Of a DNA stretch of 64,000 nt, positions 4,653 through 56,856 are shown piece by piece. Within the stretch, counting starts at the first letter, position 1; the number at the start of each line of letters is the position of its first letter. Where the stretch lies: the IMG/VR virus record IMGVR_UViG_3300037067_012588, one strand, 5' to 3'. The position numbers and the translations under genes were made by a program. The notes under the pieces are model-generated. The model was not told where the DNA came from. It worked only from the letters and a program-made list of their open reading frames with translations, and ran no database searches. This stretch comes from a virus (taxonomy: Duplodnaviria; Caudoviricetes).

Positions 4653-5780
4653 TCAGACATTCTCAACACCACCCTTGTCGAATTCGTTTTGTGTTGCCCA
4701 ATACATGAACGCTACCTGACTAAGCGCCATCACAAGCATAACCACAATCACTCCCCACCAAGGTGCTTCAACAGCGATATAGTCGAATTTCGACCAGTCC
4801 TTGATTTGATAGTTGGCTCGAATCTCTGCCTCCACCTTCGGGATAATCGTGTCATCGATTTTGTTTTCAAGAAGAATCGTCTCAAGATTCCGCTTGACCA
4901 ACATGGATTCTGTCCATCCAAACACATACGCCCAAGTTGTATTGGAGCGTGAACCTCCATAACACAGCACAAGGTCGTTCTTTTTTCCACCAATCCACTT
5001 AGCTTCCTGCAAATGAGCGATTGAGGAATCCTTTTCGCCAAAACCAATTAGGAACACATTCACCTTCTTGCTGGCTCCAAGGCGAGTATTCATCTGACCC
5101 CATCGAAAACCGTTCACAGACGCCGTAGCAGCCCCAAGGCAGCGTTTGGTAGCCATATTGCCATCATCCCCCACCCAATCGAACACAGGCGTTCCTACAG
5201 GCACATCTGCGAAGGAAAACACAGTCGGGGAACACTTCACTCGGTTCTCGAAGGAATGAACACTTGTTATTGGATAAATCTCGCCTTTTGTATTGTGGCA
5301 ATAGTAATCGTTTCGATCACCGCCGTCAAATCCATGACGACTTCCACGTTTTGGAACAATTACACCGCCTAAAAACTTGGCAATTCCATTGTATTGGTCT
5401 TCTGTAATGTCCCGTTCGACTTCATCAGTCCCACCATAACTCTCGAACGAAGACCAATGAGGATGGTGAGTTTTGTGTTCGGTTGTGTAATAGGTTTCCG
5501 TGTGAGCATTTTTTCCCGAACCAATTATCCTTGTGTGGCTCTCCTGATATTCCTCAATCCACTTTGGGTAGTGAACAACGTATTCCACCTTACCAGACCA
5601 AATCTCGTGGTCAGTTGTCATACCAGACACAATCAGGACATGAACAATGGCAGTGGTCATAAAGCCAAGCGCAGACGAGGCAAGCCACTCCCACCAAACA
5701 ACATTCTTGTTATTTATCCACATCGCCGCACCAACAGCAACAGGGATACAGGCAAGCAAATAATACATCCACATGGGCAC
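4653..5780 (-). CDS. membrane protein (two N-terminal and one C-terminal hydrophobic helices)
   Basis: hydrophobic segments flanking a large soluble domain; SD GAGGAG. Confidence 0.75.
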   Translation of the reverse strand: MPMWMYYLLACIPVAVGAAMWINNKNVVWWEWLASSALGFMTTAIVHVLIVSGMTTDHEIWSGKVEYVVHYPKWIEEYQESHTRIIGSGKNAHTETYYTTEHKTHHPHWSSFESYGGTDEVERDITEDQYNGIAKFLGGVIVPKRGSRHGFDGGDRNDYYCHNTKGEIYPITSVHSFENRVKCSPTVFSFADVPVGTPVFDWVGDDGNMATKRCLGAATASVNGFRWGQMNTRLGASKKVNVFLIGFGEKDSSIAHLQEAKWIGGKKNDLVLCYGGSRSNTTWAYVFGWTESMLVKRNLETILLENKIDDTIIPKVEAEIRANYQIKDWSKFDYIAVEAPWWGVIVVMLVMALSQVAFMYWATQNEFDKGGVENV

Positions 5781-51179: not shown

Positions 51180-52010
51180 TCAAGCAAAAGTAATAATATC
51201 ACCAACCGACCCACCAGAGGGTGGCAGTGCAGACACAAAAGTATGAGTATATGTCGCCAACTCAGTTGGCGATGTGCTAAACCCATTAGAACCAGTTGTT
51301 CCAGATGTAATCGTTGCAGTCGCAGTCTTAATTGCAACAACCTCCAATTTTTGAATAGCAAGATATGTCGAGACTGTCAATGAAACATCCATCGTTCCAA
51401 TTCTCATATACAACGGTAGAAGTCCAGAAACATTTCCATACATGGGCGTTACTGTTTGGTTTATACTCAATGACCAATCCTTCAAATCATTGATCGAAGC
51501 CGAACCAGTATACCAATACGCCATTGGTGGTTCATAAGTTGCTGAAGATGGGTCTCCATGAGTTGGAGTAAACCCTGCACCATCAACCCAATCATTCTTC
51601 GAATTAAACGACAACGAACCACTCACAAGACCACCTGTTGAACCAGCAAGTGAAGCTGTCGTCATATAACAGTCTCGCATCAACAGCCCACCCTCTCCAG
51701 CATCTATACGAACTTCAAAACGAACACCTCGTTTTGAAAATATGGCAATCATGGCATCCAAAGCACTATCAGTACAATCGAAAGAGAATGAACCAGAAGA
51801 AGAAAGGATTCCGTCCGCATAGGCAAATTTCGACCGAACAGCAGCACCAGAACCACTTGTTGGCGGAGGCATGTCAATACCGACAAGTGTTGGGGTTGTC
51901 TTATCCACTTGAAAAGAAGCACTTGTTGCCAAAATCTGCACAGGAGTGCCATCATTGACAACAATCTGTACCGCACCTTCATATCCAAGTTTTTTGACAT
52001 CAGCCGACAT
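51180..52010 (-). CDS. tail tube-like protein (paralog 3)
   Basis: LGYEG N-terminus, SLAGSTGGLVSGSL, P.AYW.T, DWSLSINQ. Confidence 0.6.
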   Translation of the reverse strand: MSADVKKLGYEGAVQIVVNDGTPVQILATSASFQVDKTTPTLVGIDMPPPTSGSGAAVRSKFAYADGILSSSGSFSFDCTDSALDAMIAIFSKRGVRFEVRIDAGEGGLLMRDCYMTTASLAGSTGGLVSGSLSFNSKNDWVDGAGFTPTHGDPSSATYEPPMAYWYTGSASINDLKDWSLSINQTVTPMYGNVSGLLPLYMRIGTMDVSLTVSTYLAIQKLEVVAIKTATATITSGTTGSNGFSTSPTELATYTHTFVSALPPSGGSVGDIITFA

Positions 52011-53287: not shown

Positions 53288-54106
53288 TCAAGCAGTCGTA
53301 AATCCATACAACTGGAACTGCATTGGGAAACTCAAAATGTCGCTTGACGATTTCAATGGCTGATTGGTATTGTTCAACTCAGCATCTGGGAACGTCATAA
53401 CTGTTCCACCAATTGTCACAGCGGGCGACATCATATCATCTGGCGTTGCAACATTCAAAAGACTCTCCACAGACAAATCACCAGTCAGCGGACCAACAGC
53501 AATATACTTTGGAGCAGCAGCCTCTATTGTACTTCCGCTTCCCTGACATGTGAAAACCTTTACAACATCTTGATTGAAGTTTATCGACCAGTTGATACAG
53601 TCTCCAAGAGATACTGTTGTCTTCCAATACGGCAACGGCTTCAACTCAAAAACAACTGGTGTCACCACGCCACCTGCAGACGGAGGAGTCGGATAAACTA
53701 CACCGTTTACAATCGTCGCTGTCAAACCTGTCGCAGATAGTGAACCAGTCACTAACGAACCAACGGAACCAGACAAACTTATCGATGACCAATATGCATG
53801 GGAAAATATACCCGATGCTCCCGTACTGGGATAAACAGCGAATGGAAGAGAGGTATTACGTCCAGTAATCCAACCCAAAAGAATCCCAAGAAGTGTTCCA
53901 CTTTCATCCAGCTCAAAATCCAAGGAACCCTCATAGTTTGGATAGTCATACTGATGAGGAACACCCATACCAACAGAACCACCAGAGGCTGTTTGACCAC
54001 CAAACGAAGCCCCCGAGTCCATCCGGTTGCGGGTCTTTGTGACCCCGCCTCCGGTGAACAAGAAGGTTGTCGTCCCAATCGTTGCGTGTCCAAGATATCC
54101 GAGCAT
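53288..54106 (-). CDS. tail tube-like protein (paralog 2)
   Basis: LGYLG, YEGSL.FE, SLSGSVGSLVTGSL, PLPYWKT, NWSINFNQ. Confidence 0.65.
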   Translation of the reverse strand: MLGYLGHATIGTTTFLFTGGGVTKTRNRMDSGASFGGQTASGGSVGMGVPHQYDYPNYEGSLDFELDESGTLLGILLGWITGRNTSLPFAVYPSTGASGIFSHAYWSSISLSGSVGSLVTGSLSATGLTATIVNGVVYPTPPSAGGVVTPVVFELKPLPYWKTTVSLGDCINWSINFNQDVVKVFTCQGSGSTIEAAAPKYIAVGPLTGDLSVESLLNVATPDDMMSPAVTIGGTVMTFPDAELNNTNQPLKSSSDILSFPMQFQLYGFTTA

Positions 54107-54124: not shown

Positions 54125-55520
54125 TTATGCGTACACAATGTCCGGGTCACTCATGATGTGCGGCGGCATCAACGTGCCAGTCGAAGTCGTACAACGACCA
54201 CCGAGACCCTTGATTGTAAACGCACGGGTCGTCGGTTCGCTCTGACCCTTCAAACCGAAATCTTCCGACTCAACAACAACAGCAGGCAGCTCAACATAAT
54301 ACATGTTCGGCGTCACACCGTCCGCACGAACGCCCTGAATCGCAACACGGAACACAGTGTTCTGCGCATACAGGAAAGGATTGTCAGGTGTTCCAGTGCC
54401 AGGAGGATTCGGACCAATGATCGGGTCAAGAACACCTGTCGGGTTGAACAGCGTTACGTTACCAGAAGCACTGATAGCACCCATCAGAACAGCTTTTGCC
54501 TCACGAGAACCACCACAAGTATACATGATGTTGTGATTGTTATTACGTTCAACACTCCAATCCATAACAGAAAGGTCACTTTGAATCGTTGTCCCACCAA
54601 TAAACGGCTCATACGTTGACGTGAAACCCGTCAAAAGCTGTGCATTGGTACGCCAGAACGGAATCGGGTCAGTGTTACGACCCGAAGGATTCAACGGGAA
54701 CGTCTCAGCCAACTCAGCACATGTCGTCACACCCGTAATCTGTTCGATATATGGCTTTCCAGCAGAAACGTCTTCTTCACGAGTCAATGCAACCACCCCA
54801 ATATCACCCGTCACCAAACTACCTGGCGAGGTCGACATCGAGACACTTGTACAGAATGCACCACGGTTGTCAAAAGCTTGCGGCGAGCCACCTGTCGCCC
54901 AATAGTGATAGACTCTGTTACCATCAACAGAAATATCACAAGAACGAGCATAAGCACGGTTGTATACGCCCCACTGACGAATCGTTTCCCAAAGATTCGC
55001 ATTACCCTGCCACTCAACACTCACAGAACCTTCGTACCGAATAGCTCCATCAGCATAGTGAGCGGCTTCTGGTGCATTGAACCAACCAGCACCCCAGACT
55101 GCGCTGGAATACAGCGGTTCAAGCGTCAAATTCACGCTACCTCCTGTTGCCAGCAACAAAACAGGGTCACTCGGAGGAACGGGGGTTCCTGCGAACGGCG
55201 TTCCAAGTGTCCGGAACACTTTTATGAAGCCCATGTCACTCTGTTACTTCAGCCTTTCGGCTTACTAACCACCTTTCGATGGCGGAGAGAACACTTCGAT
55301 TCTCTCTCTCCCCTTTATAAAAACAGGTATGGGGGAGTTCAGACTGTCGCATACACCAACTCAGATACTTGACTCGTCTAAGCCTTTTCCCTGAGTTGTG
55401 CCTCCGGCACTCAGTCGTTCACGCTGCACGGTTTCCCTGCTTGCGCCCTGTCGCCCGCTGTTCGGGCTTCCAAGTCAATCAGCCGAAGTTGAGATGGGCC
55501 ATCATCTAGCCCATAGACAT
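54125..55520 (-). CDS. major tail tube-like protein, spliced: join(55508..55520, 54125..55236), 374 aa
   Basis: AGGAGG SD before ATG at 55520; spliced start MSMGYMGFIK restores the GYxG motif of the paralogs; YEGSVSVE, SMSTSPGSLVT, PIPFWRT, DWSVE. Confidence 0.8.
55237..55507 (-). ncRNA. ORF-less group I intron (271 nt)
   Basis: P1 AUGGGCU/GGCCCAU with U.G at the 5' splice site; P3 CUUCGGC/GCCGGAG; P7 GACUG/CAGUC; P8 CAACUCAG/CUGAGUUG; two GAAA-tetraloop P9 hairpins; terminal G. Confidence 0.9.
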
Positions 55521-55534
55521 AATAAAATATCCTC

Positions 55535-56324
55535 CTATTTCATCATCCGAAAGTATTCGTCGAAAACATTTTTCTTTCTTCGGAGGCAAATTCCTCCCAC
55601 ACCATACGCAATGTTATAAAACTTTTTTGTACTCTCGATACTCGAACACTCAATGTTTCCGCAAGTGTTCCGAACCTTGAACGCACTCCAACCAAAATAC
55701 ATCCCAAATTTCTCCCAGAACGTGTTTTGAATTTGTCCAAGAGGGTCGATATGCCCAGTTATTCTAACTCGTAAACGTCCATTGTGAATGTCAACACACC
55801 CATCACCGTCAAAAAAACCACGAATGAAATGGCAATATGTGTTCTCTCCCATCAATGGTATCCTGAATCCATCTCTTCCTTTTCTGCGACAAAGCCCACA
55901 GGATTCGAACTTCTTCTTGATTCTTGCTGGAATTGTTATACGGAGATTATCTCCTATGTTTCCCAACAGAGATACCACAAATTCCTGCTATTTCACAAAC
56001 AAGGTCTCCATCTTTAAGTTCCAACAACAGATTTCCACCAAGACTTCCATCAGCACAACAAAGACCAAAAAGATAAGACTCAAAATCAGACAAACCTATA
56101 GAGCTGTTATTATCAACAACACAATTAGCCCTTAAAAACGTCTTTTTTCGACAACGAGTTTGAGCTATCTTTTTTGCACCATCAATTTGGCATGACGAAT
56201 AATAACGATACCTACCAATAACCTTCTGAGGAACAAAAATTCCTTTCAAATGCCAATATCGAACAACCGTTGTTGTTACTCCAACTGAAGATGCAAAATC
56301 TCCAATCTTCAATTCTGCATTCAT
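55535..56324 (-). pseudogene. MerR-type HTH + two-motif LAGLIDADG homing endonuclease, frameshifted near 55950-55975
   Basis: IGDFA...GVT...VRYW HTH; YLFGLCCADG in one frame and FIRGFFDGDG in the +1 frame; LRRK C-terminus. Confidence 0.8.
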
Positions 56325-56325
56325 A

Positions 56326-56856
56326 TTAGCCCTCAAGAAGCTTCGCAATACGAACAAGCTCTTTCGCAACTTTGCTGTTCACGAAAATCCGTCCTGGCGC
56401 ACGCTTCACAATCGACGGGTCTTGACCAAGCTGCTCCTCACGATTGTATTCACCCCTATCATGAACAAGATTTTCCATTTCTGGTGTCAATTTGAACCCA
56501 GCCCTTGTAATCGGGTTCGAAAGCTCTGTCTCCAGCTTGTCCTTGACCTTTTGATTCGTCCTCTTGAAGAGCTGAATCGCATACTTTGGAAGCAACTTCT
56601 TCAACGTTCCCTTATCCGTGTTGCTCATCACACCAAGCAAATAACGAACAATAATATCCGCAACAGCTCTCGCATCTGGCTTGTTGAACCCACTCATGTT
56701 TTTGTAAATCGTTGTGCGGATAGACTTTTCATCATTCGTCTGTCTTTCGTAAAGCATTCGCATTGCGATTTCGAGCCAATAATCATCATGCTCAAGTTTA
56801 TGACGCATGAATTCGACAAGAACTTTGTCTTTTCCGCTAAAAGCAACGATATTCAT
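56326..56856 (-). CDS. hypothetical protein with C-terminal AKELVRIAKLL motif
   Basis: LYERQTNDE...N.SGF...DA...KYAIQL core. Confidence 0.7.
   Translation of the reverse strand: MNIVAFSGKDKVLVEFMRHKLEHDDYWLEIAMRMLYERQTNDEKSIRTTIYKNMSGFNKPDARAVADIIVRYLLGVMSNTDKGTLKKLLPKYAIQLFKRTNQKVKDKLETELSNPITRAGFKLTPEMENLVHDRGEYNREEQLGQDPSIVKRAPGRIFVNSKVAKELVRIAKLLEG

Follow-up and report, generated by a model that had tools for sequence, protein, structure and literature searches.

The tail-tube gene of an uncultured phage is interrupted in its fifth codon by what is very probably a functional, compact group I intron without an open reading frame (ORF), as judged by comparing its sequence with those of relatives. 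The intron lies at 55507-55237 on the minus strand of the 64,000-nt stretch analysed here (the window), which belongs to a contig of 344,634 bp (about 345 kb), and within these 64 kb we found no second copy of its family. A preliminary description of the locus had proposed a Shine-Dalgarno sequence, a 13-nt first exon, a 271-nt element and a second exon at positions that all proved exact on the minus strand (Table 1). Read without splicing, the frame that opens at the exon-1 ATG runs into a stop at once, as had been described: it gives MSMG and then TAG, the bases after exon 1 being AG. Beyond the 271-nt insert, exon 2 begins with ACATGGGCTTC (AC ATG GGC TTC ATA AAA; also given as ACATGGGCTTCATAAAA), and the 369-codon ORF that follows the intron occupies 54125-55234 of the minus strand; the spliced product would have 374 residues. 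At its 3′ end the intron reads AACAGAGUG, followed by the AC of exon 2. Only G55237 keeps the frame and fits the junction seen in the intronless relative L044 described below, and the last intron nucleotide is thus a G; throughout the intron family the tail is AACAG followed by 4-7 nt, the last of them a G. The Shine-Dalgarno sequence overlaps the TAG stop of an endonuclease ORF upstream, and L044 carries GGAGGG in the equivalent position ahead of its uninterrupted tube gene.

Table 1. Features of the tail-tube intron locus, in window coordinates
Feature	Position	Strand	Remarks
Free-standing gene with MerR-type HTH and double LAGLIDADG homing endonuclease	55535..56369	-	Pfam MerR_1, LAGLIDADG_3
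Shine-Dalgarno sequence AGGAGG	55531..55536	-	10 nt before the exon-1 ATG; read directly
Exon 1 of the tail-tube gene	55508..55520	-	13 nt, ATG TCT ATG GGC T (ATGTCTATGGGCT); M S M G and the first base of Tyr-5
Intron, ORF-less, 271 nt	55237..55507	-	boundaries from the L044 empty site; ends in GUAACAGAGUG, terminal G 55237
Exon 2 of the tail-tube gene	54125..55236	-	AC completes Tyr-5, then MGFIKV... to the stop; from the ORF listing
P1	55494..55514	-	exon AUGGGCU 55514-55508 with guide GGCCCAU 55500-55494; U55508.G55500 wobble at the 5′ splice site
P3	55488-55482 with 55408-55402	-	CUUCGGC with GCCGGAG; 6/7 pairs compensatory
J3/4 UGAUUGA	inside the P3 span 55402..55488	-	7 nt
P4	55474-55471 with 55450-55447	-	4 bp; one CUUA/UAAG variant
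P5	55467-55463 with 55457-55453	-	4/5 pairs compensatory
P6/P6a	55446-55421	-	6/7 pairs compensatory
J6/7 GAAC, then P7 5′ strand GACUG	P7 strand 55416-55412	-	
P8, extended	55400-55391 with 55364-55354	-	stem pairs covary
J8/7 UAUGCGA	55353-55347	-	
P7 3′ strand CAGUC	55346-55342	-	pairs with 55416-55412; P7 crosses P3, giving a pseudoknot
P9	55337-55332 with 55313-55308	-	5/5 pairs covary
P9a, conserved CGAAG loop	55306-55299 with 55292-55285	-	8/8 pairs covary
Two GAAA-capped hairpins	55282-55269 and 55262-55251	-	
3′ domain with conserved tail GUAACAG-AGUG	55237..55337	-	P9b covaries in 3/5 pairs; GUAACAG invariant in alignment A3

The boundaries of the intron are defined by an empty site. 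L044, a locus from a 253-kb contig, encodes a tube protein 90% identical to that of the window, and at the corresponding position its DNA reads ATGTCTATGGGCTATATGGG, translated as MSMGYMGFIKV, without an insert. The sequence (ATGTCTATGGGCT-ATATGGGTTTTATC, given also as ggagggtattttacc-ATGTCTATGGGCTATATGGGTTTTATCAAG) opens an uninterrupted ORF of 373 residues at L044:2486-3607, whose first 13 nt are identical to exon 1 of the window. Because deletion of exactly 55507-55237 recreates this arrangement, with GGCT/AC in the window and GGCTAT in L044, both read as Gly-Tyr, both intron boundaries are fixed.

The N-termini of the homologues point the same way. Most of 120 tube homologues start M-x-MGY[QM]GF (M-[GAS]-M-G-Y-[QM]-G-[FY]), as in MAMGYMGFAKFY, MSLGYMGYCKLF and MSMGYQGYAKIV, the DNA of the relatives having been taken from IMG/VR loci. 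The spliced N-terminus put forward in the preliminary description, MSMGYMGF, fits this consensus, and its Gly-Tyr, which would be lost without splicing, is conserved in both paralogues of the gene within the window. It had also been anticipated that automated annotation would miss the true start, and indeed the protein database holds a truncated form of 369 amino acids (P0001) that begins MGFIKV. Because gene callers pick up again at the first ATG beyond the intron, the database entry and many homologues are truncated at the N-terminus. The same intron accounts for at least some of the truncated homologues; L034, for instance, encodes QGFVRMYQDGPAVGP after its intron. Many database homologues start at an internal Met (P0017, P0023, P0030, P0048, P0072 and others), with starts such as MYQDGP..., MVLATGASVN... 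and MNLVLEP...

The identity of the host gene was examined on a predicted structure. An AlphaFold model of the 369-residue product, built from 20 homologues, had a mean pLDDT of 64.6 and a pTM of 0.67, and Foldseek matched it to the tail tube of P74-26 (PDB-code: 8ed0) at an E-value of 2.4e-9 and to the T5 tail tube (PDB-codes: 9iny and 5ngj), in line with a tandem tail-tube fold. PF18906 matches 10 of 20 family members, the window protein falling below the cutoff. On this model the gene is one for a double-domain tail-tube protein of the T5 pb6 or P74-26 type, in keeping with the identity assigned to it in the preliminary description. A tblastn search with the tube protein found no homologue among 50,697 phage records, and a profile search of PDB sequences returned nothing meaningful. 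Two paralogous tube-like genes lie downstream (53288-54106 and 51180-52010).

A related element is present at the start of four other tube genes (L034, L046, L035 and L043), inserted at the position of the window intron or offset from it by 1 nt. Exon 1 has 13 nt both in L034 (ATGGGAATGGGGT) and in L046 (ATGGGAATGGGAT), and exon 2 of these two begins AT CAA GGC; in L035 and L043 the intron begins 1 nt sooner, which leaves a 12-nt exon 1, ATGGG[T/A]ATGGGT, ahead of an exon 2 that starts TAT/TAC CAA GG. Removal of the intron restores MGMGYQGF in all four. Our model R1 scores these introns at 160-175 bits, and none of them is in its seed. Thirteen other tube loci are intronless, and this distribution of presence and absence across the tube loci is the pattern expected of a mobile intron. 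The guide, moreover, follows the exon: exon and guide read GGGCU/GGCCC in the window, GGGGU/GCCCC in L034 and GGGAU/GUCCC in L046, so the wobble base of Gly-4 forms a C-G, a G-C and an A-U pair, respectively, with the splice-site U always opposite G. Changes at the third base of Gly-4 are synonymous, and the guide changes in step with them.

An extended P8 bearing the same insert (GAAAAGGCUU...GUCAAGUA; window 55390-55365, minus strand, L034:2305-2350 and L046:2340-2385) is present in the introns of the window, L034 and L046. This insert marks a sub-lineage because it has no counterpart in the short-P8 tube introns of L035 and L043 or in the coat-gene copies described below. Long tblastn spans in L033 and L035 had raised the possibility of a second insertion, which was rejected since the spans correspond to the adjacent paralogue.

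The secondary structure of the window intron (Table 1) contains all of the elements previously named for it, that is P1 with its U.G pair, P3, P7, P8, P9 and the terminal G. The U.G wobble of P1 falls on the 5′ boundary that the L044 empty site fixes, and 5 nt separate P1 from P3. The minimum-free-energy fold of this copy has a z-score of -5.09 against shuffles and recovers P1, P4, P5, P6, P9, P9a and P9b, and R1 scores the intron at 165.6 bits. Of the 75 alignment columns conserved at 95% or more among the other sequences, this copy keeps 73, and every one of the 50 modelled pairs can form in it; on the strength of these counts and of its fold, it looks intact. For P10 we found no convincing candidate in the window intron. 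An extension of P3 by ACUU/AAGU and a P4 made of GCGC...GCGU were considered and rejected, as covariation and the CUUA/UAAG variant favour CUUG/CARG as P4 and GNNN/NNNU as P6.

How far does this intron extend beyond tube genes? A blastn search of the element against 50,697 phage records gave a single match, MW202674.1, in which a P22-type coat gene is in two pieces with a homologous element between them. The coat junction GAU/ACA is fixed by the uninterrupted gene of L009 (CAC GTT GAT ACC CAG TTC); this copy has an 8-bp P1 (AUGUGGAU with GUCCACAU) with U.G at the 5′ site and ends in G, and the U.G rule for P1 holds at two coat-gene sites. GenBank lists the coat gene of L001 (MW202674.1 16569-18084) as a pair of CDSs, each named ‘P22 coat protein’, and annotates a spurious 120-nt ‘hypothetical protein’ CDS within the 268-nt intron (L001:2938-3205).

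Further members were retrieved with two short core motifs, which yielded 28 IMG/VR contigs at first and then at least 120. Among the matches listed, R1 finds 148 copies at E-values up to 0.001 in 100 loci, so that at least 150 copies of the family are detectable in all, and single loci among these 100 contain as many as five or six. L088, L089, L095, L057 and L065 hold three to six copies each within a few kb; in L057 three copies occupy 1.5 kb of a P22-type coat gene, and in L088 the family matches are at 5487, 5806, 6301, 6520 and 7113. The host is a P22-type coat gene in 55 of 95 instances among the matches listed, the others including genes for portal, an SU10-like capsid protein and tube; an RNR-like host gene appears only once in the 95.

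Alignment A3, which comprises 66 distinct cores, was used to evaluate a hand-derived structure of ten helices and 50 pairs. Pairing is possible in 96.3% of cells, compared to 74.3% in shuffled alignments and 39-44% when the 3′ partners are slid, and 37 of the 50 pairs show compensatory changes on both sides in the 66 sequences. P3 (columns 6-12 with 124-130) crosses P7 (columns 116-120 with 194-198), as in a group I core. P7 itself covaries, being GACUA/UAGUC in 59 sequences and GACUG/CAGUC in 7, and P4 is supported by U-A/U.G variation and by the one CUUA/UAAG variant. The helices follow in the order P3, J3/4, P4 (CUUG with CARG), P5, P6/P6a (GNNN-AA-hairpin-A-NNNU), J6/7 GAAC, P7 5′ strand GACUR, J7/3 AGU, P3′, P8, J8/7 AUGCGA, P7 3′ strand YAGUC, P9, P9a, GAAA-capped hairpins and finally GUAACAG plus 4-7 nt ending in G, which is the canonical group I order; most members are without P2. 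The segments GAACGACUA/G...AGU and GCGAYAGUCUGAAC are invariant in A3. In 70 distinct upstream contexts, a P1 helix of at least 6 bp ending in U.G was found in 84%, compared to 22% of shuffles.

The Infernal check proposed in the preliminary description did not bear the assignment out when run with the Rfam group I model: neither at the gathering score nor with E-values allowed up to 10 did RF00028 match the window, L001 or any of 13 loci that together contain about 25 copies. This negative result weighs little, because the T4 td and nrdB introns (L164, AF158101 134000-148000), taken as controls, also miss the gathering score; in a permissive search they reach 40.3 and 35.7 bits, respectively, against a cutoff of 50. 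The comparison places the family at a greater distance from the Rfam seed than the T4 introns, and the missing match is no argument against group I identity. Scans that rely on the RF00028 gathering score can thus miss phage introns. A 2025 survey likewise describes RF00028 as incomplete (PMC11878797).

With td and nrdB, as aligned to RF00028, the family shares the R and S elements AACGACUA (J6/7-P7) and AUAGUCUG (J8/7-P7′), for which the consensus of RF00028 reads UCAaAGACUA and GAUAUAGUC, and it has the same order P3-P4/P6-P7-P3′-P8-P7′-P9-terminal G. The P7 of the family (GACUA with UAGUC) and its 3-nt J7/3 match the Tetrahymena intron as well. The T4 introns, annotated as group IA in AF158101, differ in that they contain endonuclease ORFs, possess additional helices between P7 and P3′ and reside in nucleotide-metabolism genes, whereas the present family is usually without P2, has a 7-nt J3/4 (UGAUUGA) and a 95-nt multi-hairpin 3′ domain, and gives no match to RF00028. 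In the opposite direction, R1 run on td and nrdB with filters off produced only noise-level partial matches. With no model score to bridge the two, what ties the family to canonical group I introns is its architecture together with short core motifs.

The intronless L044 allele, the restored N-terminus, the same-site introns and the covarying core together support the initial reading of the element as an ORF-less group I intron, and we infer from them that the RNA is catalytic and spliced in vivo. In the pre-mRNA, AUGGGCU of the exon would pair with the guide GGCCCAU of the intron to form P1, and free guanosine bound in P7 would attack after U55508 at the U.G wobble. The freed 3′-OH of exon 1 would then attack after the terminal G55237, joining GGCU to ACAUGG and restoring the frame MSMGYMGFIKV...; the predicted junction 24-mer is ATGTCTATGGGCTACATGGGCTTC (GGCT/ACAT). 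Full-length tube protein appears to require this reaction, because the ATG led by the Shine-Dalgarno sequence meets a stop after four codons in unspliced RNA, because the ATG at 55234 lacks a ribosome-binding site and stands at the foot of the ribozyme, and because the Gly-Tyr otherwise lost is conserved in the homologues and in both paralogues.

These same points bear on the possibility that the RNA is never spliced out but forms a structured leader, a cis-regulator or an otherwise processed RNA, with MSMG as a short upstream ORF ending at TAG and the tube protein starting at 55234. That ATG does sit 2 nt past the proposed 3′ splice site, and gene callers did choose the 369-residue P0001. A start there, however, would have no Shine-Dalgarno sequence, would adjoin the end of a structured RNA and would forfeit a Gly-Tyr present in nearly all homologues and both paralogues. 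Members of the same RNA family also break the reading frames of coat and portal genes partway through, where they cannot serve as leaders, and a leader does not explain why the guide tracks a synonymous exon base; we consider this reading very unlikely. Translational bypassing in the manner of T4 gene 60, with take-off at the GGC before UAG and landing at a downstream GGC some 280 nt away, has next to no chance of being right, even though a Gly codon followed by UAG resembles the gene 60 take-off and a matching GGC exists at 55231-55229. Known translational bypasses cover some 50 nt, the conserved Y-M-G would be missing from the product MSMG-FIKV, the junction in L035 and L043 shifts by 1 nt as a splice site would and a codon-matched landing would not, and the RNA holds a full group I core.

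A further possibility is that the intron is a decayed relic incapable of splicing, and that the first tube paralogue is non-functional or truncated, its work being done by the two tube-like genes downstream. The existence of these paralogues is compatible with that view, and the frameshift in the adjacent endonuclease gene points to decay of a mobile cassette. The intron itself, however, retains 73 of 75 conserved columns and every modelled pair, P1 and P7 included, and the 1.1-kb exon 2 is an intact ORF that is 85-90% identical to relatives. A dead relic is very unlikely, and an active group I intron is the better account of the locus.

In the endonuclease gene just upstream of this intron, a frameshift separates the two LAGLIDADG motifs, LFGLCCADGS and FFDGDGCV, which therefore lie on two overlapping ORFs in different frames (55947-56369 and 55535-55978). 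These align to residues 4-117 and 127-251 of an intact 271-residue ORF in L046 (1453-2268), which occupies the slot equivalent to the window's and whose 3′ end extends across the start of the tube gene into the intron. Because this intact relative has both motifs in one ORF, the window gene is probably broken, unless a sequencing error produced the frameshift. Upstream of the tube gene of L043 is a different LAGLIDADG-like ORF (1538-2218), and in L044 only about 55 nt, in the stretch 2392-2485, resemble the 3′ end of the endonuclease gene. LAGLIDADG genes are found upstream in 3 of 5 intron-bearing tube loci and in none of the 13 intronless ones, and the stop codon of the window's endonuclease is 15 nt from the exon-1 ATG. 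This association suggests that endonuclease and intron may travel together as a two-part homing cassette. Reportedly, the psbA gene of cyanophage S-PM2 and the endonuclease F-CphI form such a system of collaborative homing, in which an ORF-less intron is paired with a neighbouring free-standing endonuclease. As there, an ORF-less group I intron adjoins a free-standing endonuclease gene; the enzyme here differs in being a LAGLIDADG protein with a MerR-like HTH, frameshifted in the window. The endonuclease gene and a 261-residue gene are separated by a 176-residue ORF (56326-56856, minus strand; phrog_21015), which is missing from L044, where the 261-residue gene directly precedes the tube gene.

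Phage structural genes with group I introns have been described before. Twort orf142 was later recognised as a tail-tube gene (PMC11878797). The self-splicing Twort introns resemble the present one, whose splicing is predicted, in residing in a late, highly expressed phage tail-tube gene; Twort is a cultured staphylococcal myovirus with three introns in this single gene, whereas here there is one, in codon 5 of a T5/P74-26-like double-domain tube gene. Among Cluster J mycobacteriophages, BAKA has a 265-bp ORF-less intron in a minor-tail gene and LittleE an intron in its capsid gene, and the capsid gene of Tuc2009 also has a group I intron (PMC3706429). The Cluster J introns are likewise small, reside in virion genes and were found via intronless relatives, with exon 1 ending in U and the intron in G, and that of BAKA is similarly without an endonuclease gene and of about 265-270 nt. 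They differ in being internal to their genes, whereas ours begins 13 nt from the start codon, and in that their splicing was shown by RT-PCR and N-terminal sequencing whereas that of ours is predicted from the DNA. In the search of 50,697 phage records, blastn detected no similarity between the element and the Twort or Cluster J introns.

What is new is a first exon of 12-13 nt that recurs in five tube genes, a large intron family that has gone unnoticed by Rfam and annotators, and the dominance of virion genes as its hosts among the matches listed. In the open-access literature we found no paper that describes the family. Alignment A3 and model R1 provide a ready seed alignment and model for finding further copies, and the 12-13-nt first exon is a natural minimal 5′ exon for ribozyme work. 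For the phage, the intron means that the true start of a major virion protein has been hidden from annotation, and for the family, its virion-gene hosts go against the usual picture of phage group I introns as residents of DNA-metabolism genes.

P1 is made up of codons 3-5, and a ribosome starting at the ATG led by the Shine-Dalgarno sequence would have this helix inside its footprint; we therefore speculate that splicing and initiation on the pre-mRNA should compete. A wider reading, which we think unlikely, would make the placement functional: the ribozyme would gate tube synthesis, the two-part homing cassette would be aimed at the first tube codons, and the family would prefer virion genes. 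If this were true, initiation and P1 would exclude each other and only transcripts spliced before ribosome loading would yield tube protein, and compact ORF-less group I introns would preferentially colonise virion genes in uncultured phages.
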